Shown here: positions 17,368 to 50,015 of the stretch, piece after piece | Position numbering within the stretch: the first letter of the stretch is position 1 | Layout: each line of letters begins with the position of its first letter | Assembly (NCBI GenBank): GCA_913058255.1 | Contig: CAJXQU010000001.1 | Span: 502,886-566,885, forward strand | Direction of reading: 5' to 3' | Length of the DNA stretch: 64,000 nucleotides | Source: an uncultured Pseudomonadota bacterium | GTDB lineage: Bacteria; Pseudomonadota; Gammaproteobacteria; CAJXQU01 | Notes under the pieces: generated by a model | Seen by the model: only the letters and a program-made list of their open reading frames with translations | The model's database searches: none | What the model was told of the DNA's origin: nothing | Translations under genes and position numbers: made by a program

Positions 17368-18270
17368 ATGACAGATTACCCAACAATTGCAGATTTTGTC
17401 GGCAACACACCTTTAGTACGCTTACAACGCCTACCGTCGCAACAAGGACATTCAAGTAATACTATCCTTGTTAAATTAGAAGGTGATAATCCGGCAGGTT
17501 CAGTTAAAGATCGACCGGCGATCAACATGATCAATCGCGCAGAAGAACGCGGTGATATTAAACCCGGTGATACTCTCATAGAAGCTACAAGTGGTAATAC
17601 TGGAATAGCTCTGGCAATGGCGGCAGCGATCAAGGGTTATAGAATGATTCTGATCATGCCGGATAATATGAGTGAAGAACGACGCGCTTCAATGAAAGCA
17701 TACGGTGCCGAAATTATTCTTACGCCAGCAGAAGGAAGCATGGAGTCTGCAATAGATAAGTCACGAGAGATGGAAGCTGAAGGTATTGGTAAGGTCTTAG
17801 ACCAGTTTTCAAATCAAGATAACCCACTTTCTCATTTTGAAGGAACAGGCCCCGAAATTTGGCGTGATACTAAGGGAAAGATTACTCATTTTGTCAGCTC
17901 AATGGGAACAACAGGGACAATCATGGGAACGTCTAAATATTTAAAGAGTGTGAATTCTGACGTTCAAATAATTGGAGTTCAACCGGAAGGCGATGCTAGC
18001 ATCCCGGGCATTCGACGTTGGCCAGAAGAATATCTACCAAAAATTTATGATAGCCGTCGTGTTGATCGCGTTATGGATATGGATCAACAAACAGCTGAGA
18101 ATACGATGCGAGACATGGGAGCAAAGGAAGGGATCTTCTGTGGTGTTTCTTCTGGGGGGGGCGTTGCGGCAGCATTGAGGCTCTCTAACGAAGTGGAAAA
18201 TGCTGTCATCGTCGTGATTGTATGTGATCGGGGCGATCGTTATATATCCACTGGAGTTTTCCCCGGCTGA
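17368..18270 (+). CDS. cysM: Cysteine synthase B
   Basis: Collinear with the E. coli CysM sequence as recalled from memory (GNTPLVxLQR, SVKDRxA PLP-lysine, TSGNTG, GIFCGVSSGG). 300 aa. Confidence 0.85.
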   Translation: MTDYPTIADFVGNTPLVRLQRLPSQQGHSSNTILVKLEGDNPAGSVKDRPAINMINRAEERGDIKPGDTLIEATSGNTGIALAMAAAIKGYRMILIMPDNMSEERRASMKAYGAEIILTPAEGSMESAIDKSREMEAEGIGKVLDQFSNQDNPLSHFEGTGPEIWRDTKGKITHFVSSMGTTGTIMGTSKYLKSVNSDVQIIGVQPEGDASIPGIRRWPEEYLPKIYDSRRVDRVMDMDQQTAENTMRDMGAKEGIFCGVSSGGGVAAALRLSNEVENAVIVVIVCDRGDRYISTGVFPG

Positions 18271-18277
18271 TCTGATG

Positions 18278-20383
18278 CGTTTATTTCGCTTGATCTGCCT
18301 ATTAGTCTCAAGTGTTTTTTTCTCTAATATTTATGCTATTGAGAAACTAAATGTTGAGATTGAACAAGCTGAGTTTTCGGGCTGGCAATTTGAATCGGTA
18401 CACATTGACTTTGATCTCTCATCTCAGCCGTTATCTACAGAAAATGTTACGACGCCACATATTTCTATTTCTATCGATAAGCTAATTTCGAAACAAAATG
18501 AAACCTTTAAGAACATTAAAATTGCCTGTCCTTTAGCTTCATTTGAACATGTCCTGCAGTTTGATCTAATTGAGTGTCAGTCCGGATATTTTTCCGCGAA
18601 GCATAATCTACTAGGAAGGCTAGAAGGAAGGTTAGACTTTACCTTAGATACTGAAAATGAAAAACTTGAGGCGAATATTACGACTTTTAAACTGGCTGGC
18701 GGTTCTGTCGATCTAAAAATAAATGCTAAGAAAGGTGAGTGGAAGGTTGATCTTAAAGGTCGCTCACTGGATGTGGAGAAATTAAAAAAACTTCTAGCCT
18801 CTTTTGTAACATTACCGAATGTAACATCAGAAGAAACGGGAAAGATTAACCTTCAACTGAAAGCCAATGGACGAGGAGAGAATTTACGTTCAGCAAGAAT
18901 TAATATTAGAACATTTGATTTAGGTTTTGATGGCAATTCGGTAGCGGAAGAACTTGATGCAAAAATCAATATTTTATTAGAAAGAAAAGATGAGGAGTGG
19001 TTGATAAAGCAAGAGATTAGCTTGTTAGATGGCGCGGTTTATATAGAGCCTGGAGTTGAGGTTGGAGCAGTCAAACCGGGGTTTCTACTGGAGGTAGGAC
19101 AACAACCGATTACCCTTGTCATAGAAGCCGGTTGGAAAGAAGCGCGTATCCAAATTGATAAACTAACCTTTACTCACCCTGATGTGATAGCTATTAATAT
19201 CGAAGGCATTATATCTCCGGAAAATAATTCTCCGGTTGATGAACTATCCATGTCGATCTATACACAAGATTTAAATGCCGTATTTCCTACTTATCTTCAG
19301 CCGCTTTTATTTGGATCGGGCTTAGACGAAATAGAAATTATTGGCCAGATGGATCTAAAAATACAGCTACGGGAAAGTAGCATTACAGATTTTCATTTAG
19401 TGCTTGATGATGTTTATGCTGACGATCAGGCAAGCCGATTTCATATCGCTGGATTGAATGGCGATGTGCGTTTAAATAGTGATCCCAATGTAAAGGACTC
19501 GACAATGACATGGCAAGGTGGATCAATTTATCAGGTTAATATCGGTGCTAGTGATATGAAGTTATCTTCCAAAGGACGCTCGATGAAGTTGCGTGAAAAA
19601 ATGCGTATTCCTATCTTTGACGGTGAGCTTCAGGTTAATGATCTGGAAATGAGAAAGCTTGGCTTAGAAGACTATTCTGTACGAATCGAAAGCACACTAA
19701 CACCGATTACATTAAGCGAGTTTACAGAAGCGATAGGCTGGCCGATCATGGCGGGGAATATTTCTGGTGAAATTCCGGGTGTTACATACAATCAAGGCGA
19801 CTTGACTACAGAGGGTCGGTTAAGAGTGAGTGTTTTTGATGGTGACATTACGATTAGCCATCTTTGGATCGAAGATTTATTTGATTTAATCCCAACGCTT
19901 TATGCTGATATTGCCATAAAGAACATTGATCTAGGAATATTAACCAAAACATTTGAATTCGGAGATATAACCGGCCGGCTTGATGGCTATATGAATAATT
20001 TGCGTTTAGATAACTGGGAGCCTGTTCAGTTCGATGCGAAGCTTGCCACTCCTGAAAAAGATGACTCCAGACACCGTATCAGTCAACGTGCTATTGATAA
20101 TATAACGAGCATTGGCGGCGGTGGTTCGGATGTTGTCTCTCGTGGAATATTAGGTGTGTTTGAGGATTTTCCCTATTCTAAAATTGGCCTTAGTTGCCGT
20201 CTGATCGATAGCGTTTGTTTTATGAGTGGTGTCGAGAAAATTGAAAATGGTTATTATATTGTTAAGCGTGGTTTTCTGCCTCCTTGGTTAAATATAAAAG
20301 GTTACAATGATAAAGTTGATTGGCCAGAGCTATTAGACCGGTTGCAGAATATCTCTGAAACAGACAGTCCTACCATAGAATAA
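18278..20383 (+). CDS. Large secreted/periplasmic protein of unknown function (possibly AsmA/YdbH-like)
   Basis: Start moved to the Met preceding a clear signal peptide (MRLFRLICLLVSSVFFSNIYA). ~700 aa, mostly beta-rich. The ORF-track start overlaps cysM. The family call is weak. Confidence 0.35.
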   Translation, partial: RLFRLICLLVSSVFFSNIYAIEKLNVEIEQAEFSGWQFESVHIDFDLSSQPLSTENVTTPHISISIDKLISKQNETFKNIKIACPLASFEHVLQFDLIECQSGYFSAKHNLLGRLEGRLDFTLDTENEKLEANITTFKLAGGSVDLKINAKKGEWKVDLKGRSLDVEKLKKLLASFVTLPNVTSEETGKINLQLKANGRGENLRSARINIRTFDLGFDGNSVAEELDAKINILLERKDEEWLIKQEISLLDGAVYIEPGVEVGAVKPGFLLEVGQQPITLVIEAGWKEARIQIDKLTFTHPDVIAINIEGIISPENNSPVDELSMSIYTQDLNAVFPTYLQPLLFGSGLDEIEIIGQMDLKIQLRESSITDFHLVLDDVYADDQASRFHIAGLNGDVRLNSDPNVKDSTMTWQGGSIYQVNIGASDMKLSSKGRSMKLREKMRIPIFDGELQVNDLEMRKLGLEDYSVRIESTLTPITLSEFTEAIGWPIMAGNISGEIPGVTYNQGDLTTEGRLRVSVFDGDITISHLWIEDLFDLIPTLYADIAIKNIDLGILTKTFEFGDITGRLDGYMNNLRLDNWEPVQFDAKLATPEKDDSRHRISQRAIDNITSIGGGGSDVVSRGILGVFEDFPYSKIGLSCRLIDSVCFMSGVEKIENGYYIVKRGFLPPWLNIKGYNDKVDWPELLDRLQNISETDSPTIE

Positions 20384-20647
20384 AACTCGCCGAGTTTTAT
20401 TAAAGTAAATTCTCGAATAAACCGTATATCCATAAATAACTTAACAAAAACTGAACAGAAACTTAACAAAAAATTATCAAAATTTGACAAAGGTAAATGG
20501 AGTGAGTTAAAAGTGATCTTGCGCTTGATGTAGGGGCAAGGAGAAAAGCCTTTGTTAATCCTTTCGATATTCTTCTGAAAAGGGTTTTACTCCAAAATAA
20601 AGCTATCGCGCGTAGCTAAATAATAATTATGGAAGGGAGTATTTGTA

Positions 20648-21991
20648 ATGCTATTTTTATGTAATTTATGGCCTTGGTTAGCAGGTGGCTTGCTCGGGTG
20701 GTTGCTCAGTGGTTGGTTGGCTCGACGGTTAAAATATGGAGAGCCTCCTGTCGAAAAAATTGTAGAGAAAACAGTGGAAGTTGAAAAAGTTATCGACAAC
20801 CCAAAGCACCTCTCTCTCATATCTCAACTTGAAAATGAAAATCGTCAAATAGACGAGCTCAAAATGAGAGTTTCTGAATTTGAAAAATCAGAAGCCGATA
20901 TAGCGGATCTGATTAAAAAAGAAGGTGTTAGTGCGAATGGTGGGCTGCGCTCACAATTCACGCATTTGATTAGTGGCTTTAGAACAAAAATTTCTGATCA
21001 TGAAGGAAAGCAGCCCGGAATAGTTGAGAAGATTGTTGAAAAGCAGGTCGATAATCCTGAGCACTTAATACGAATTAGATTACTTGAAGAAGAAAACGCG
21101 CAGATCAATGGGCTGCAAGCAACGATCACAACATTAGAAAACCGAAGACCAACGACGATAGAAAAAATTGTTGAGAAAGAAGTAGAAAAACGAGTCGATA
21201 ATCCTGCTCACTTAAATCGCATCAAATTACTTGAAGATGAGTTGGAAATATGGAGAAGAACCCCTTCTATTAATTTACCTGCAGCACGAGCATCTGGAAT
21301 TGTTATTAAGGCCGAGGATGATTTCACTGCTATTGAAGGAATTGGGCCGAAGATTAGTGAGCTGATTCATGCAGATGGTATTCATACATTCAGGGAGTTA
21401 TCTGAAACTGAGCCCACTCGTATTCAAAGCATTCTAGATAAAGCAGGAACAAATTTCCAGATGGCTAACCCTGGAACGTGGCCTGATCAGGCAAACTTGG
21501 CATCATCAAATCGATGGCCGGCGCTCAAAGCTTTACAAGATATTTTGGATGGTGGTGTTTATCCCGATCTGTCTGCGGAACGTGCAGCATTAACAAGCAG
21601 TAATGCGCAGGATACCGCTAAAATTGAGGCGTTAGAAGACGAGTTGGCTGCTTATCGATTAGCTGAAACTCAAACTGCCTCCGTTGCTGATATTGCAGCT
21701 GCAAAAGCGGCTGGATTTAAAGTTAGACGCCAAGGTAGCCATGATGATTTTACCGTCATTGAGGGAGTTGGACCGAAGATTGATGAATTAATCCATGCTG
21801 GAAATATTCATACCTATAGTCAACTTGCCTCAACTTCCATAGTAGTCATTCAAAAAATATTGGATGATGCAGGGGCGAATTTTGTTCTTGCAAAACCGGA
21901 CACATGGCCAGCCCAATCTGATCTAGCAGCCAAAAACCAGTGGATAGATTTAATGAAATGGCAAGATGAGTTAGACGGAGGCAAGGAATAG
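20648..21991 (+). CDS. Membrane-anchored repeat protein: three EKIVEK-xVDNPxHL coiled repeats plus two C-terminal HhH-like (IEGIGPKI) modules
   Basis: N-terminal Trp/Gly-rich TM helix. Three ~45-aa repeats (VEKIVEKTVEVEKVIDNPKHL / IVEKIVEKQVDNPEHL / IEKIVEKEVEKRVDNPAHL, each followed by LLE[ED]E). Two ~100-aa repeats containing DDFTxIEGxGPKIxELIHAxxIHT and PxTWPxQ. Confidence 0.5.
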   Translation: MLFLCNLWPWLAGGLLGWLLSGWLARRLKYGEPPVEKIVEKTVEVEKVIDNPKHLSLISQLENENRQIDELKMRVSEFEKSEADIADLIKKEGVSANGGLRSQFTHLISGFRTKISDHEGKQPGIVEKIVEKQVDNPEHLIRIRLLEEENAQINGLQATITTLENRRPTTIEKIVEKEVEKRVDNPAHLNRIKLLEDELEIWRRTPSINLPAARASGIVIKAEDDFTAIEGIGPKISELIHADGIHTFRELSETEPTRIQSILDKAGTNFQMANPGTWPDQANLASSNRWPALKALQDILDGGVYPDLSAERAALTSSNAQDTAKIEALEDELAAYRLAETQTASVADIAAAKAAGFKVRRQGSHDDFTVIEGVGPKIDELIHAGNIHTYSQLASTSIVVIQKILDDAGANFVLAKPDTWPAQSDLAAKNQWIDLMKWQDELDGGKE

Positions 21992-21993
21992 TC

Positions 21994-23508
21994 ATGGAAT
22001 ACAATAAAGAAGAATATATCTCACCTCAATGGCCGGGTTTTCGCCGAGCCTGGTGGATTGTTGCGATAATCCTGTTTATCTTATTGCTACTGATGTGGCT
22101 CATGGGGTATGGACCAGGAGGTAAGGCCTGCAAAGTTCCTGCAGAAGTCCGTACGGTTGAAAAACTAGTTGCAGCGCCTGATGTGACGGCTCCACTGATC
22201 ACTTTGAATGACCTGTCGGTGTTAAATCTCGTTAGAGGTGAAAAGTATGTTGAAGCTGGAGCAAGAGCTATCGACGGCACAGATGGGAATATGACCGTGA
22301 TGACGAGCGGTGAGGTTGATACGAGTAAAGTCGGTGAATATATCGTCACTTACACAGTCATAGATGCTGCGGGTAACAGTACGACAGAGACTAGAAAAGT
22401 TACTGTGACTGAGCCTGTTGATACAGCAGCACCTGAGATCAAATTAAAGGGTGAGTCGATCGTTTATTTAAAAGCAGGTGAAAAATATATAGATGCCGGC
22501 GCCGATGGAACTGATCTTATTGATGGGAAGCTTTCAGTCGAGTCGAAAGGCAAAGTGGACACCTCGAAAGCTGGGGAATATGTGATTTCATATCGAGTGA
22601 CGGATGAAGCTGGTAACCATGCAACAGCAACTCGTAAAGTGGTTGTCATTGCTCCTGATAATGAGGCTCCAATTATAAGTTTGAATGATGCATCTGTTAT
22701 CTATTTGAAATCCGATGAAACGTACATTGAAGCCGGAGCAAAAGCTGTTGATGCTAATGACGGAGATCTCCAGATTACGACTGAAGGTGCGGTCGACACA
22801 AACAAAGCTGGCGAATATATTATCACTTATAAAGTGACAGACTCAGCTGGTAATGTTGCTACAAAAACTAGGAGAGTCATTGTTACGGTTGCAGATGACA
22901 TTGATCCTGTTATCAGCCTCAATGGTTCCTCTGTTTTATATTTAGAACGAGGTGAGAGTTATACTGAAGCTGGTGCTAAAGCATACGATAATAATGATGG
23001 TGCCGTGAAAGTTATTGCTAGTGGTTTTGTTGATACTAATAAGGTGGGCAGTTATTTACTGAGTTATACAGCAGTTGATAAAACGGGAAACAGAGCAACA
23101 GCGACACGTAAGATTATTGTTTCGCCCCGCGCAACGACAAACCTCGCTGAACCAACGTCTCCAACCGTTATTTCTGAGTCTACAAAGGAAGTAATGCCTA
23201 GTACGAAACTGTATTTTGGTTTGGATAAAGATGACAATCCGAGGGATACAGATAAATCATTAGCAACGGTAATTGAATACTTGAAGACTAACAGCAAATC
23301 GAGAGCTTCCATCTCGGGTTTTCATGACCCAAGTGGCCATCATGCCTATAACAAAGATTTAGCGAATCGACGTGCGAAAACGGTAATGATGATGTTGAAT
23401 ACTGCAGGAATTTCTGCAGAACGAATCGTGATACAGAAGCCTGTAGAAACGACAGGAACAGGCTCGCCTAAAGAAGCTCGTCGTGTGGAAGTCTCTATCG
23501 TGAAGTAA
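21994..23508 (+). CDS. Membrane-anchored protein with four tandem Ig-like (DUF5011-type) repeats and a C-terminal OmpA-like peptidoglycan-binding domain
   Basis: N-terminal TM helix. Four ~80-aa repeats with the pattern D..AP.I.L.G.S..YL..GE.Y.EAGA.A.D..DG.L.V...G.VDT.K.G.Y.I.Y.VTD.AGN.AT.TRKV.V. The C-terminus has OmpA-like hallmarks (NxxLAxRRAxxV, ARRVE). Starts 3 nt after the preceding gene. Confidence 0.55.
   Translation: MEYNKEEYISPQWPGFRRAWWIVAIILFILLLLMWLMGYGPGGKACKVPAEVRTVEKLVAAPDVTAPLITLNDLSVLNLVRGEKYVEAGARAIDGTDGNMTVMTSGEVDTSKVGEYIVTYTVIDAAGNSTTETRKVTVTEPVDTAAPEIKLKGESIVYLKAGEKYIDAGADGTDLIDGKLSVESKGKVDTSKAGEYVISYRVTDEAGNHATATRKVVVIAPDNEAPIISLNDASVIYLKSDETYIEAGAKAVDANDGDLQITTEGAVDTNKAGEYIITYKVTDSAGNVATKTRRVIVTVADDIDPVISLNGSSVLYLERGESYTEAGAKAYDNNDGAVKVIASGFVDTNKVGSYLLSYTAVDKTGNRATATRKIIVSPRATTNLAEPTSPTVISESTKEVMPSTKLYFGLDKDDNPRDTDKSLATVIEYLKTNSKSRASISGFHDPSGHHAYNKDLANRRAKTVMMMLNTAGISAERIVIQKPVETTGTGSPKEARRVEVSIVK
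22183..23134 (+). repeat. Four tandem ~240-bp coding repeats (Ig-like modules) inside the 21994-23508 gene
   Basis: The protein-level repeat units recur with conserved spacing. The units have diverged, not identical copies. Confidence 0.6.
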
Positions 23509-23538
23509 TTTTACGATTAGTTAAGTGAGTTAAATTTG

Positions 23539-23586
23539 AAAGGGGTGGCTATAATAGTAAAGTAATAGCCATCCCTTTCTTTAGTT
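23539..23586. terminator. Hairpin terminator between convergent genes
   Basis: 13-bp stem AAAGGGGUGGCUA / UAGCCAUCCCUUU (one G-U), followed by CUUUAGUUUU. Sits between the stop of the + gene (23508) and the stop of the - gene (23587). Confidence 0.5.
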
Positions 23587-24363
23587 TTAAAACCAATAAG
23601 ATAACCCCAGATGTGTACGTAGTTCAATGTCAGAACTGGATGTTAACGGGCTCTGTGTGATCGTACTTGGTAAATGCTCGTACATTAGGCCGCCTTTTAG
23701 TGAAAAGTGTTTAGCAATACGAGTTTTTACTTCAACGCCAAAGAAAGGAATCAGTGCTGAGTTTCCTTGATGTTTTTTTCTATTGGGAGTGGCTTCAGAA
23801 TTTTTTACGCCATAATAGTAGTCGACTACGTCTTTACTCTGCCAACGAAAACCTCCAGATAAACCAACGGTAAGCTCAGGACCACCATTCCATTTTTCAG
23901 TATAAAATGGCTCTCCAAAACGAATCTCAATTTCTTGACCTTTATGATTGCCCAGAACATCAGAGAGCACATGCAAGCTGAGTAAGCCATAATCAGTTTT
24001 TAAACTCGCACGACCACCAACCTCTAAAGATGATTGACGCTCACCCATTCCTTTTAGAATTGGAGAATCATCGTGTTCGTAACCATAATATAAAGTCTTA
24101 GCTAAAATTTCGAGATTATATTGTTCATTGTTATAAATGCTATATGAGATCGAGTTAGAATCTATATTGAGGCTTTCACCACGATACTCTAAGTGTAAGA
24201 GGACAATATTTTTATTTTTTTGTTCTGTATAAATAGATGAACGTATTGCATTGACACCTAGACCCCATTGTTCTGTAAATAAATCTTCCGCGAAAGAATG
24301 TTTAGGTACAAAAATGAACGTAGAAACTGATAGTATTAGGCATTTTTTTGATAGTGTATTCAT
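23587..24363 (-). CDS. MipA/OmpV-family outer-membrane beta-barrel protein
   Basis: Signal peptide, alternating amphipathic beta-strand pattern, C-terminal aromatic (…LGLSYWF). 258 aa, typical MipA size. Adjacent to a two-component system. Confidence 0.55.
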   Translation of the reverse strand: MNTLSKKCLILSVSTFIFVPKHSFAEDLFTEQWGLGVNAIRSSIYTEQKNKNIVLLHLEYRGESLNIDSNSISYSIYNNEQYNLEILAKTLYYGYEHDDSPILKGMGERQSSLEVGGRASLKTDYGLLSLHVLSDVLGNHKGQEIEIRFGEPFYTEKWNGGPELTVGLSGGFRWQSKDVVDYYYGVKNSEATPNRKKHQGNSALIPFFGVEVKTRIAKHFSLKGGLMYEHLPSTITQSPLTSSSDIELRTHLGLSYWF

Positions 24364-24480: not shown

Positions 24481-26073
24481 TCAAGTTTGAGAATAAATTG
24501 GCCAGCTTAAGGTAAAACAAGCTCCGCCTAAACGTGAGTCAGAAATATGTATTGAACCCTGGTGAGCTTCAATAATTTTTTTTGTAATAGCTAAGCCGAG
24601 ACCATGCCCTCCGGTTTTTCGATGACGACTGATATCAAGTCTAGTGAATGCATTGAAAATACGTTCTCTGTCTTCTACTGGAATACCAATACCATCATCT
24701 TCAATACGGATCTGTAGCAGGTCCTTCTTAACGAAAAGCGATAAGCTTATGGTTTGGTTGCCGTAAAGGCTGGCGTTGCGCAATAGGTTATGAATGGCGC
24801 GAGCAAAATGCCGAGGGTTTATTTGTGTTGTGAGATTGAGAGGTAGACCATTAAAAAAATGTATAAATGTTTTGTCACTCATATAGCTAGATGTTTGTTC
24901 TATTATATTTTCTAGCCAAGGGATAACTTCGATTGTTTCAAAATCCTCTGTAGTTTTTAAACGCTCAAAACGAGCGTAGCGAAGTAGCTCATTAACAAGA
25001 TCTTCTAACTCATCAACATCTGAATTTAAGCCGCCTAGATAACGCTCCCTAGAATCTTCATTACTATTAGATAGCATATCGAGACCAAAACGCATTCGTG
25101 CGATGGGAGTGCGCAACTCATGAGAGACTGCGTTGGTTAATTCACGGTGGCCTGTAACTAGATGACTAACTCGATCAGCCATAGTGTTAAATTGTTGCGC
25201 GAGTTTGCCAAGAGATTTTGTCTTTTTTATATCGGTACGAGCAGTTAATTCACCTCGACCAAAATCATCCGCGGTTTGGCTAATATTCTTTATAGATAAC
25301 CAAAGTGGACGTAACCATAAGAGCAATGCTGTTGCGAGTGAGGCGAGAAAAACTCCAAGTAAAGCTGACATAAATGTCATGAGGCTAATGGGTTGTTTGA
25401 TCGGTCCAAATTGTAAGGTGTAGGGTGAATTTTTCAATTTACCAAAAAATCGCCAACGGTTAGTATTATGGTCAAGTGCTATTACCTTTCCATTCTCCAT
25501 AAGTATTTTTTGTTTTGAAGATAATGAAAGTTCTGAGTCTTTGACCAAACTAATTGGAAAGCCGAAATGAGGTTGCAGGTTTTTGATCAGCTGTACCCAC
25601 GTCGTTTGTGGTGCTTTGAGCAACTCTTGTTCTAGTAGGTAAAATGTTCCTTGAGCTTGTTTATGATCCTCTTCTGTTTGGCTTTCAGAAAATGCGATGG
25701 CTAATACTGAACCAGAATCTTGTAATCTGGAAATATTGTAATTAGCATCATCAATGTCAGGATGTAAAGATTCCCCTGCATTAATTTTGGTCCAATTTTT
25801 TTTATTGATCAGAACATTTTCAGGTTCTAATATCTGTAGGGGATAACCAAAGTGTTCTTGTAAATTATGTAGAGCTTTTTGTTGTTCAGCATTACTTAAG
25901 CCCTTTAATTTTTTATCTAGTAAATAAAATGAGCCACGGGTTAGTTTATCTTCGTATTGATCTATTTTTTTAGATAAAATGATGTCAGGTAGATATTCAA
26001 TTGCTAGAACAAAACCAACCAAAAATACAGTAAGGAATAAAAATAGAGGAAGGAAAATTCTAAACATTACCAA
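24481..26073 (-). CDS. Sensor histidine kinase (two TM helices, HAMP, HisKA, HATPase_c) with ~200-aa periplasmic domain
   Basis: H-box SHELRTPI, with N, G1 (DDGIGI) and G2 (GGHGLGL) boxes. Overlaps the response-regulator stop by 7 nt. Confidence 0.85.
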   Translation of the reverse strand: MVMFRIFLPLFLFLTVFLVGFVLAIEYLPDIILSKKIDQYEDKLTRGSFYLLDKKLKGLSNAEQQKALHNLQEHFGYPLQILEPENVLINKKNWTKINAGESLHPDIDDANYNISRLQDSGSVLAIAFSESQTEEDHKQAQGTFYLLEQELLKAPQTTWVQLIKNLQPHFGFPISLVKDSELSLSSKQKILMENGKVIALDHNTNRWRFFGKLKNSPYTLQFGPIKQPISLMTFMSALLGVFLASLATALLLWLRPLWLSIKNISQTADDFGRGELTARTDIKKTKSLGKLAQQFNTMADRVSHLVTGHRELTNAVSHELRTPIARMRFGLDMLSNSNEDSRERYLGGLNSDVDELEDLVNELLRYARFERLKTTEDFETIEVIPWLENIIEQTSSYMSDKTFIHFFNGLPLNLTTQINPRHFARAIHNLLRNASLYGNQTISLSLFVKKDLLQIRIEDDGIGIPVEDRERIFNAFTRLDISRHRKTGGHGLGLAITKKIIEAHQGSIHISDSRLGGACFTLSWPIYSQT

Positions 26074-26780
26074 GCATCCTTTACAAATAAATAACCTTTA
26101 CCCCAAATGGTTTTAATCTTGTTAGGATGAACAGAGTTATCGCCGAGTTTATTTCTTAATCGAGAAATTCGAATGTCAACCCAGCGATCAAGACCATCGT
26201 AATCAATTTTTCTGACAGCCAGTAATATTTCTTCGCGACCCATGATTTCTCCAGCATGAGAACAGAGGAAGTATAATAAATCAAATTCATTACTGGTGAG
26301 TTCAAGTTCTTTTTGGTCTAAGATTGCTTGGCGCGATGATTGATTAATTTGCAATGAACCAAAATTGAACGTTGTTGTTTGGTCTATGTTTTTCTCGAAC
26401 TTCGTCTGGCGACGCAAAAGTGCATTAACTCTGGCAAGTAAAACACGTGGTTCAACAGGTTTGATCACATAATCATCTGCCCCCAGTTCTAATCCAATAA
26501 TTTGATCAATGTCTTCATCTTTTGCTGACAGAATTAATACCGCCCCTACATATTGAGATTGAACTTGTTTATAAACGTTAAGTCCATCCAAACCTGGAAG
26601 CATAAGATCAAGTATGACTAAATCTGGTTGTTCTGTAATAATTCGACTAACGGCCAGATCCCCACGTGTCTCATGAGAGATAAGGAAGTTACTCTTTTCA
26701 AGATATTCTTTTATCAGATCGGCAAGACGTTGATCATCCTCGATTAATAAGATGTGCTCTTTATTCGTTAAGTTTGACAT
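26067..26780 (-). CDS. OmpR-family response regulator
   Basis: Receiver domain (DD…D…K pattern, ILLIEDD start) plus a winged-helix trans_reg_C C-terminus (RWVDIRISRLRNKL…GKGYLF). Confidence 0.85.
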   Translation of the reverse strand: MSNLTNKEHILLIEDDQRLADLIKEYLEKSNFLISHETRGDLAVSRIITEQPDLVILDLMLPGLDGLNVYKQVQSQYVGAVLILSAKDEDIDQIIGLELGADDYVIKPVEPRVLLARVNALLRRQTKFEKNIDQTTTFNFGSLQINQSSRQAILDQKELELTSNEFDLLYFLCSHAGEIMGREEILLAVRKIDYDGLDRWVDIRISRLRNKLGDNSVHPNKIKTIWGKGYLFVKDAW

Positions 26781-49623: not shown

Positions 49624-49994
49624 GAGAGTTGGCCAGGCAGTCGCTGTATGCAAATACAGAGGAAAGTCCGGGCTCCATAGGGCAGGGTGCTAGATAACGT
49701 CTAGGGGGCGAAAGCCTACGGAAAGTGCCACAGAAAACAGACCGCCACTCGGCTTCGGCCGAAGGTAAGGGTGAAAAGGTGCGGTAAGAGCGCACCGCGC
49801 TAGTGAAAGCTAGTGGCAGGGTAAACCCCACCTGGAGCAAGACCAAATAGGGGAATGCGCCGCTTCGAGCGGTATCGTGTGGTCCGCATGAGTTCCCGGG
49901 TAGGTTGCTAGAGGTGTTACGGCGACGTACATCCCAGATGAATGACTGTCACACCATATGGTGTACAGAACCCGGCTTATCGGCCAACTCTTTT
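49624..49994 (+). ncRNA. rnpB: RNase P RNA (bacterial type A)
   Basis: Matches the E. coli M1 RNA as recalled from memory: AGGAAAGUCCGGGCUCCAUAGGGCAGGGUGC, GGAAAGUGCCACAGAAAA, GGUAAGGGUGAAAAGGUGCGGUAAGAGCGCACC, ACAGAACCCGGCUUAUCGGCCAACUC. P1 closes by pairing AGUUGGCC with GGCCAACU. Confidence 0.95.
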
Positions 49995-50015
49995 TCAACT
50001 TCATAATGGTTAGTT

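Follow-up and report, generated by a model that had tools for sequence, protein, structure and literature searches.

Introduction

Peptidoglycan-holding inner-membrane proteins are known mainly from motors and secretion machines. MotB/PomB, TagL of the type VI secretion system (T6SS) and ArfA (Rv0899) of Mycobacterium tuberculosis are built alike, with a short N-terminal tail, one transmembrane (TM) helix, a linker and a C-terminal OmpA-like domain. The same bitopic layout is proposed here for the product of gene B, which is located on the forward strand of a stretch of 64,000 nucleotides of contig CAJXQU010000001.1 from an uncultured gammaproteobacterium (the window, meaning the whole stretch that was analysed). 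The sequence of B matched Rv0899 and also YiaD, and a faint BON match, reminiscent of ArfA, is present in one B relative (P0064). Unlike MotB/PomB, TagL and ArfA, B has no Asp in the TM helix and no partner of the MotA/ExbB type; it has a GYGPGGxxC anchor, a spacer of four immunoglobulin (Ig)-like domains, and a partner with a single TM helix and helix-hairpin-helix (HhH) modules, which is encoded by gene A directly upstream.

Further described proteins share single parts with the A-B pair. Pal, YfiB and YiaD are the best sequence matches of the C-terminal domain of B and carry the same Asp/Arg pair that binds diaminopimelate, but they are lipoproteins with a lipobox Cys and reside mostly in the outer membrane, whereas B has no lipobox, an apparently uncleaved TM helix, and Ig repeats. 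The extender regions of adhesins (the RTX adhesin 6xi1; arrays of PF16403, Big_13 and HYR domains) have the fold and the tandem rod arrangement in common with B, as well as conserved acidic motifs with putative Ca2+ binding; however, adhesin arrays project from the surface via type I or type V secretion systems (T1SS, T5SS), whereas the array of B is located between the membrane anchor and the wall-binding domain. The HhH module is common to A, PhaH, protein-O of the RC-LH1 complex, and extensions of NuoE, L21 and S2, and it is the only domain shared. The relation of the protein-O module to such extensions has been noted, and its function was called obscure (PMC12079452). The HhH domain of Caulobacter PhaH is a non-specific DNA binder through which polyhydroxybutyrate (PHB) granules are attached to the nucleoid (review PMC13052382, citing Salinas et al. 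2023). Unlike PhaH, A has no phasin part, and it has a TM helix, VEKIVEK/DNPxHL repeats, and an obligatory neighbour of the OmpA type.

The analysis described below makes it fairly probable that B forms the periplasmic half of a conserved inner-membrane complex of two proteins, which couples a cytoplasmic structure to the cell wall. The parts, like the principle of a wall tether, are known from elsewhere. What has not been described before is the spacer of Ig domains, the conservation of the anchor, and an HhH partner that is obligatory, and no description of the anchor-plus-OmpA family or of its HhH partner was found in the searchable literature.

Results

Domain architecture of B

At the domain level, B is a member of both PF16403 and PF00691. 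The Pfam model PF16403 (Bact_surface_Ig-like, formerly DUF5011) matched four stretches of the protein (E 1.8e-72, 239.7 bits versus a cut-off of 27), and PF00691 (OmpA) matched residues 418-491 (E 9.9e-10, 39.1 bits versus a cut-off of 27.2). The AlphaFold2 model, which was built on an alignment of 22 sequences and has a mean predicted local distance difference test (pLDDT) score of 82, comprises a helix at residues 13-39, a disordered stretch at 45-59, a rod of four predicted beta-sandwiches (pLDDT 85-92), a disordered linker at 381-398, and an alpha/beta OmpA-like domain at 403-503. A Foldseek search of the PDB with the rod yielded cadherin and protocadherin ectodomains, the tetra-tandem repeat of the RTX adhesin 6xi1, and the Ig domain of a Moritella chitinase, all with E ~1e-11.

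The OmpA-like domain contains the motif GFHDPSGHHAYNKDLANRRA, which retains the Asp/Arg pair D445 and R460, 15 residues apart, within GFHD...NRRA. This spacing is presumably identical to that of Asp271 and Arg286 in the OmpA protein of Acinetobacter baumannii. In the latter protein, the two residues bind diaminopimelate (PMC5974059). An alignment of 42 diverse family members revealed that R460 is invariant and that D445 is kept in at least 90%. The PDB sequence search with the C-terminal domain retrieved Pal (4pwt, E 6.5e-8), YfiB, YiaD, PA0833 and Rv0899. Judged by this conservation of sequence, the domain very likely grips peptidoglycan. The original prediction for this locus had described four tandem Ig-like repeats of the DUF5011 type, followed by a C-terminal OmpA-like peptidoglycan-binding domain; the repeats do match an Ig family and the OmpA residues are present, so that this observation stands.

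Conserved pairing of A and B

The original prediction missed the upstream gene A, which is the most informative feature of the locus. The stop codon of A lies 2 nt before the ATG of B, and a GGAGG motif is present upstream of B. A-type genes are defined by the pattern FLCxLWPxLxGGLxGWL...RR together with at least one HhH module, and gene A, with two such modules, fits this definition. An A-type gene is located directly upstream of the B-type gene in 37 of 37 tabulated A-B pairs, some of which are redundant (L019, from a genome scan, was left out as a plain OmpA match), and B follows in every locus in which A is complete and the DNA continues past A. The genes outside the pair vary from locus to locus. 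The gap between A and B ranges from -8 to +2 nt in close forms, which suggests translational coupling, and measures +19 to +55 nt in minimal forms that are more distant. A-B pairs occur in Thiotrichaceae/Cocleimonas, unclassified Gammaproteobacteria, Desulfobulbaceae, Betaproteobacteria, and metagenome-assembled genomes (MAGs) of Pseudomonadales.

Two natural fusion proteins from the public collection, P0370 (221 aa) and P0415 (225 aa), consist of the A TM helix, a loop of 12-25 aa, the B TM helix, the anchor Cys and the OmpA domain, and they have no HhH part. These fusions are Rosetta-stone evidence and indicate a hairpin of the A and B TM helices. Both families also have a conserved cysteine close to the membrane. 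Of 99 A homologues, 98 contain a Cys two positions ahead of LWP, and it is the sole Cys in 84 of 120. Among 50 B homologues, 47 contain a single Cys, which is that of the anchor, and C46 is invariant in the 42 diverse members. A disulfide between Cys5 of A and Cys46 of B is an attractive hypothesis.

These results bear on the alternative that survives best, namely that B alone stabilizes the envelope as a general staple between the inner membrane and peptidoglycan, and that A shares no more than the transcript with B and serves some other purpose in the cytoplasm. Such a role for B would be in keeping with the many unrelated proteins that are tethered to the wall by OmpA-like domains, with the use of the same OmpA subtype in the absence of A in YidB-TM-Cys-OmpA and pyrophosphatase-OmpA fusions, and with the envelope genes that adjoin the operon (mipA/ompV and a two-component system). 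However, A and B remain neighbours amid changing flanks in each locus that could be evaluated, their gaps of -8 to +2 nt suggest translational coupling, fusions of the A TM helix to B exist, and an invariant juxtamembrane Cys is present in both proteins. The staple without a partner is thus regarded as rather unlikely.

Domains and topology of A

Gene A encodes a hydrophobic N-terminal helix (MLFLCNLWPWLAGGLLGWLLSGWLARRLK), a middle part of three VEKIVEK...DNPxHL units, and two HhH modules. The AlphaFold2 model predicts helices in the middle part with disordered VEK segments between them, and both HhH modules are predicted to be compact and helical (pLDDT >90). The HhH module matches the C-terminal domain of protein-O of the D. 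shibae RC-LH1 complex with E 1e-6, and also a subunit of complex I. Distant A homologues (L020, L021 and L049) contain tandem arrays of VEKIVEKPVDRIVEKIVDRP of up to ~700 residues, and the length of the VEK repeats across A homologues ranges from ~30 to 700 residues. In the metagenomic locus L006 (2623-3998), A is interrupted within the first HhH module, giving two open reading frames (ORFs) of 304 and 153 aa, through either a frameshift or an assembly error; the B protein of this locus (P0058) has no Ig repeat and a six-Cys spacer instead.

Three independent lines of evidence argue for an N-out, C-in orientation of A, with the bulk of the protein in the cytoplasm. First, basic residues are lacking ahead of the TM helix but are present behind it in a near-invariant ARRLK, in agreement with the positive-inside rule. 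Second, the HhH relatives are cytoplasmic. Third, the OmpA domain of the natural fusions can be periplasmic only if the two TM helices form an antiparallel hairpin that starts outside, which places the N-terminus of A outside. This geometry would also place the Cys residues of A and B at the same, periplasmic face of the membrane.

The opposite orientation would make A a protein like TolA, TonB or ComEA, with periplasmic HhH modules that bind a polymer such as DNA, for instance in the course of DNA uptake, and with B fixing the assembly to the wall. Periplasmic HhH proteins of the ComEA type do exist, the Glu/Lys/Pro/Val-rich VEKIVEKPVDR arrays resemble the spacers of TonB and TolA in composition, and a helical repeat is common to A and to some periplasmic spacers of B. 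Against this, the flanking charges point the other way, the HhH module has only cytoplasmic proteins among its nearest relatives, the OmpA domains of P0370 and P0415 would come to lie in the cytoplasm, and no competence genes are nearby. Therefore, a periplasmic A is considered quite improbable.

Anchor and localization of B

The hydrophobic core of the B anchor (AWWIVAIILFILLLLMWLMGY) comprises 21 residues without Asp or Glu, is directly preceded by R17 and R18, and has a mean Kyte-Doolittle hydropathy of 2.76 at residues 19-37. The residues S10, W13, F16 and R17 of the N-terminal tail are invariant columns in the family alignments. The anchor Cys is preceded by G-K-A in B and by GKS, GRN or GSK in relatives, and thus there is neither a lipobox nor a conserved signal-peptidase site; the residue directly before the Cys is not consistently small among homologues. 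The strong conservation of the N-terminal tail, which is unlike that of signal peptides, together with the 21-residue core and the lack of a lipobox, means that B is best read as an uncleaved, bitopic inner-membrane protein, in line with the N-terminal helix of inner-membrane type that had been proposed. The most plausible orientation is N-in, C-out, because the OmpA-like and Ig-like domains have to sit outside the cytoplasm. B is accordingly best read as a link between the inner membrane and peptidoglycan, and not as a surface adhesin.

Other identities of OmpA-containing proteins were tried and rejected. An OmpA lipoprotein does not fit, as there is no lipobox [LVI][ASTVI][GAS]C, and the scores of NCBIfam equivalogs are far below their cut-offs (e.g., Pal 43.9 versus 125). 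An OmpA porin would have an N-terminal 8-stranded beta-barrel, whereas the N-terminus of B is one helix.

The use of this OmpA subtype in other proteins supports the localization. Membrane pyrophosphatases and YidB/DUF937-TM-Cys modules with a fused OmpA domain of this subtype exist, and the PDB entry 7f4v contains a PsaB-OmpA chain; domains of this type have thus been used repeatedly to tie inner-membrane proteins to the wall.

A shared anchor with an exchangeable spacer

Homologues of B share the anchor ...SPHWxGFRxLWW-TM-LGYGPGGxxC (WLLGYGPGGxxC) and the OmpA-like domain, and between these two elements they have 0, 1, 2, 3, 4, 5, 6 or 7 Ig repeats. Residues 10-46 of the window protein contain all parts of the anchor, i.e. 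the N-terminal tail, the TM helix, LGYGPGGxxC and a single Cys. A search that started from an Ig-less member retrieved many proteins of ~190-210 aa in which this anchor and this OmpA subtype are joined by a linker rich in Ala and Pro; the linker of these minimal forms has a median length of 51 residues and consists of 57% Ala plus Pro. Helical repeats serve as the spacer in yet other members. The distance between the anchor Cys and the OmpA domain varies from ~43 to 500 residues in the family and is 355 residues in the window protein.

A profile of anchor plus OmpA domain was scored against 1.84 billion cluster representatives (clusters at 50% identity), and 294 representatives were matched at E<=1e-30, i.e. 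~300 clusters at 50% identity. The strict anchor pattern occurs in 73 of the best 150 profile matches, and only 12 of these 73 have Ig repeats, so that the Ig array is a lineage-specific, exchangeable spacer. The same follows from the relatives that get to the wall with an Ala/Pro linker of ~51 residues: the Ig rod is an exchangeable spacer and not an adhesive surface array. The original prediction of a tether that spans the periplasm finds partial support, for a connection between inner membrane and peptidoglycan but not for a span up to the outer membrane. Exact look-ups with B (P0001) and A (P0124) retrieved no record, a scan of GTDB yielded only relatives with <=62% identity, and the closest relatives are marine Gammaproteobacteria and Thiotrichaceae MAGs.

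Existing annotation labels the family only as 'OmpA family' or 'Ig-like domain-containing'. Many minimal members of ~190-210 aa (P0267-P0315) carry the Joint Genome Institute (JGI) label 'K(+)-stimulated pyrophosphate-energized sodium pump', which looks wrong and apparently results from annotation transfer from pyrophosphatase-OmpA fusions (P0087 and P0097).

Spacer exchange extends to a repeat that is shared with A. In three metagenomic loci (L031, L034 and L043), the spacer of B consists of 4 to ~10 helical repeats of the form ...NKE(D/N)PEL.KR...LEKEN.LI.GLKAKI.ALE..., which are homologous to the DNPxHL helices of A, and the A proteins of these loci are short (205-255 aa, one HhH module). 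This is the sole length pattern that was noticed; a comparison by eye across the pairs revealed no correlation between the lengths of A and B.

The tandem repeats had also been proposed to be a hotspot for copy-number variation. Over evolutionary time this holds: besides the range of 0-7 repeats, recently duplicated neighbouring repeats were found in relatives (P0002 repeats 4/5, 81% identity; P0006 repeats 4/5, 84%; P0032 repeats 1/2, 78%), and thus copy number shifts through tandem duplication. It probably does not hold for gene B itself. The four repeats of ~80 aa have pairwise identities of 46-55% at the protein level and 53-62% at the DNA level, which is too low for slippage, and Tandem Repeats Finder detected no DNA-level repeat in the gene. 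Within the clade of four-repeat proteins, repeats at the same position are 60-79% identical between species, versus 46-55% between the repeats of the window protein. By this comparison, the four repeats of B are old and positionally orthologous among close relatives.

Two further alternatives are affected by these results. B could be a secreted, surface or outer-membrane-associated adhesin, with a cleaved N-terminal helix and with Ig repeats that bind external ligands, as repeats of the PF16403, Big and cadherin-like kinds are typically found in surface adhesins and the nearest folds of the rod are cadherins and an RTX adhesin. Yet Pfam and NCBIfam revealed no beta-barrel, lipobox, LPXTG or T1SS/T5SS/type IX secretion system (T9SS) signal in B, its 21-residue core and conserved tail are unlike signal peptides, small residues do not consistently precede the Cys, and a plain Ala/Pro linker replaces the Ig array in relatives, so that an adhesin is very unlikely. 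In the specific form of an exported Ig-repeat adhesin this identity was rejected, because no secretion or anchoring match in Pfam or NCBIfam reached its cut-off; the matches of repeat type were at the domain level only (Ca_tandemer 30.7 versus 50, LapB_rpt_80 38.7 versus 45). Least probable of all, and by now hardly credible, is a MotB/PomB/TolR-like stator or plug of an ion-driven motor, which would share the layout of short cytoplasmic tail, one TM helix and periplasmic OmpA-like domain and for which there is a weak MotY match, but which is contradicted by the lack of an acidic residue in the TM helix, by a partner with one TM helix instead of four (MotA) or three (TolQ/ExbB), and by the lack of flagellar or Tol genes nearby.

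Features and genomic context

The coordinates of the features are summarized in Table 1. A scan for promoters performed no better than with shuffled sequence and yielded no plus-strand site upstream of A; a TTGACA at 20484-20489 with a weak -10 element, read by eye only, is a candidate. No Rfam RNA element was found near the operon, and the only Rfam match in the window is RNase P RNA. ARAGORN detected no tRNA genes in the 64 kb.

Table 1. Features of the A-B operon and its surroundings (positions in the window)
Feature	Position	Strand	Description	Basis
Gene A	20648..21991	+	447 aa, upstream partner of B	ORF list, Pfam, AlphaFold2
A, Cys5	20660-20662	+	Invariant Cys	Homologue alignment
A, aa 6-25	20663-20722	+	TM helix	Hydrophobic N-terminal helix
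A, aa 206-302	21263-21553	+	HhH module 1	
A, aa 345-445	21680-21982	+	HhH module 2	
Gene B	21994..23508	+	504 aa, best read as bitopic inner-membrane protein: anchor, 4 Ig-like domains, OmpA-like domain	ORF list, Pfam, AlphaFold2
B, aa 1-18	21994..22047	+	Short tail, probably cytoplasmic; motif S10-P-x-W13-x-G-F16-R17	Family alignments
B, aa 19-39	22048..22110	+	TM helix without acidic residue	Hydropathy, AlphaFold2 helix 13-39
B, aa 38-46	22105..22131	+	Family signature GYGPGGKAC	Cys46 codon 22129-22131, sole Cys of B
B, aa 62-141	22177..22416	+	Ig-like repeat 1	PF16403; AlphaFold2 beta-sandwich
B, aa 142-221	22417..22656	+	Ig-like repeat 2	PF16403; AlphaFold2
B, aa 222-300	22657..22893	+	Ig-like repeat 3	PF16403; AlphaFold2
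B, aa 301-380	22894..23133	+	Ig-like repeat 4	PF16403; AlphaFold2
B, aa 381-398	23134..23187	+	Flexible linker	pLDDT <50 in AlphaFold2 model
B, aa 399-504	23188..23505	+	OmpA-like peptidoglycan-binding domain (predicted); D445 = 23326-23328, R460 = 23371-23373	PF00691; PDB matches
Terminator-like hairpin	23538..23579	+	Closes the A-B operon; stem, then TTTCTTT	-25.9 kcal/mol, z -4.9
721-aa ORF	18218-20383	+	Immediately upstream of the operon	No Pfam match
MipA/OmpV-family gene	23587-24363	-	Outer-membrane protein	
Sensor kinase gene	24481-26073	-	HAMP/HisKA	
Response regulator gene	26067-26780	-	OmpR type	
RNase P RNA	49625-49995	+	Class A	RF00010, 330.9 bits

Chromosomal housekeeping genes surround the operon. 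Upstream are leuA, a gene of the UDG family, genes for a GNAT acetyltransferase and a pyridoxal phosphate (PLP) enzyme, and the 721-aa ORF, a counterpart of which (700-713 aa) is located upstream in the closest relatives (L001 and L009-L011) and is not present in more distant loci. Downstream, the MipA/OmpV-family gene and the two-component system on the opposite strand are followed by pdxB; genes for MipA and a histidine kinase are also near the A-B operon in L001. Several Thiotrichaceae loci have a small Cys-rich ORF just upstream of A, which encodes 70 aa in L012 (2542-2754), L013 (907-1119) and L014 (2495-2707) and 94 aa in L018 (3172-3456), with the pattern ...CPECG...CNACK...GECC(I/V)YCCYGD(Y/F)PCPQ...; it is not present in the window.

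Discussion

What the sequences show directly are the domains, the conserved residues, the pairing of the genes, the conservation across the family, and the fusion proteins; from these we infer the topology, the contact between A and B, the disulfide, peptidoglycan binding and a cytoplasmic ligand. A and B would be produced from one transcript, probably with translational coupling. The TM helix of B (N-in, C-out) would hold the protein in the cytoplasmic membrane, the four Ig-like beta-sandwiches would act as a semi-rigid spacer, with a length of roughly 15 nm as estimated from typical Ig-domain dimensions, and the OmpA-like domain would bind meso-diaminopimelate of stem peptides non-covalently via D445 and R460. 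B would thereby pin the inner membrane to the cell wall. The TM helix of A (N-out, C-in) may pack antiparallel against that of B, so that Cys5 and Cys46 would meet at the periplasmic face and could form a disulfide between A and B or within homodimers. The cytoplasmic part of A would be a stalk of repeats or coiled coil of variable length that ends in two HhH modules of the PhaH DNA-binding type, and the complex would connect the wall with a cytoplasmic partner, for which the nucleoid is the simplest candidate. By analogy with PhaH, the A-B pair could thus provide nucleoid-to-wall coupling.

Several observations weigh against this reading. The charges that flank the TM helix of B are ambiguous, and its orientation rests on domain logic. 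The occurrence of the DNPxxL repeat in A and in the periplasmic spacer of B would be more parsimonious if both were in one compartment; apparently, both sides of the membrane make use of this repeat, and the topology model offers no explanation for such a use. YidB-TM-Cys-OmpA fusions keep the Cys after the TM helix without having a partner A, and therefore the Cys may serve B-B dimers or have another role. The PhaH model matched A with E 1.9e-8, but the score of 34.8 bits is far from the cut-off of 250, so that DNA binding by A is proposed by analogy only. A Foldseek search of the PDB with the model of A gave no significant match; the best matches were the HhH regions of NusA, Dpo4 and pol iota, with E >=0.5. 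The range of ~43-500 residues for the spacer is hard to fit to a fixed distance between membrane and wall, and thus the Ig domains may bind something themselves. Lastly, no studied member of either the A or the B family was found.

The most specific version of the proposal is a bridge with a layout like that of the LINC (SUN-KASH) complex, in which the HhH modules of A hold nucleoid DNA or a large cytoplasmic structure, the TM pair is locked by Cys5-Cys46, and B is fixed to peptidoglycan. The likeness is an analogy only. Two single-pass proteins of opposite orientation would bridge a membrane-bounded space, one partner having a long cytoplasmic repeat stalk and a very short luminal tail with a conserved Cys, and the other a spacer in the lumen plus a binding domain. 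In the LINC complex, an intermolecular disulfide joins SUN and KASH. There is no homology between the two systems, however, and in the A-B pair both the contact and the disulfide are hypothetical. Such a bridge is advanced tentatively, as a possibility that is unlikely rather than remote.

If it were true, a direct mechanical link between chromosome and cell wall would exist in Gram-negative bacteria, and it would be present in Thiotrichaceae, Desulfobulbaceae, Betaproteobacteria and other groups. The broader proposal that the A-B pair couples a cytoplasmic structure to the wall would, if correct, bear on the positioning of the nucleoid relative to the envelope, and also on the unexplained HhH extensions of NuoE, L21, S2 and RC-LH1 protein-O. 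The B family is free-standing. Its members combine a wall-binding domain with an anchor that is invariant and a spacer that can be exchanged, and genetically they are locked to an HhH membrane protein. As the spacers vary on both sides of the membrane, with 0-7 Ig repeats on one side and ~30-700 VEK residues on the other, the family constitutes a natural length series.

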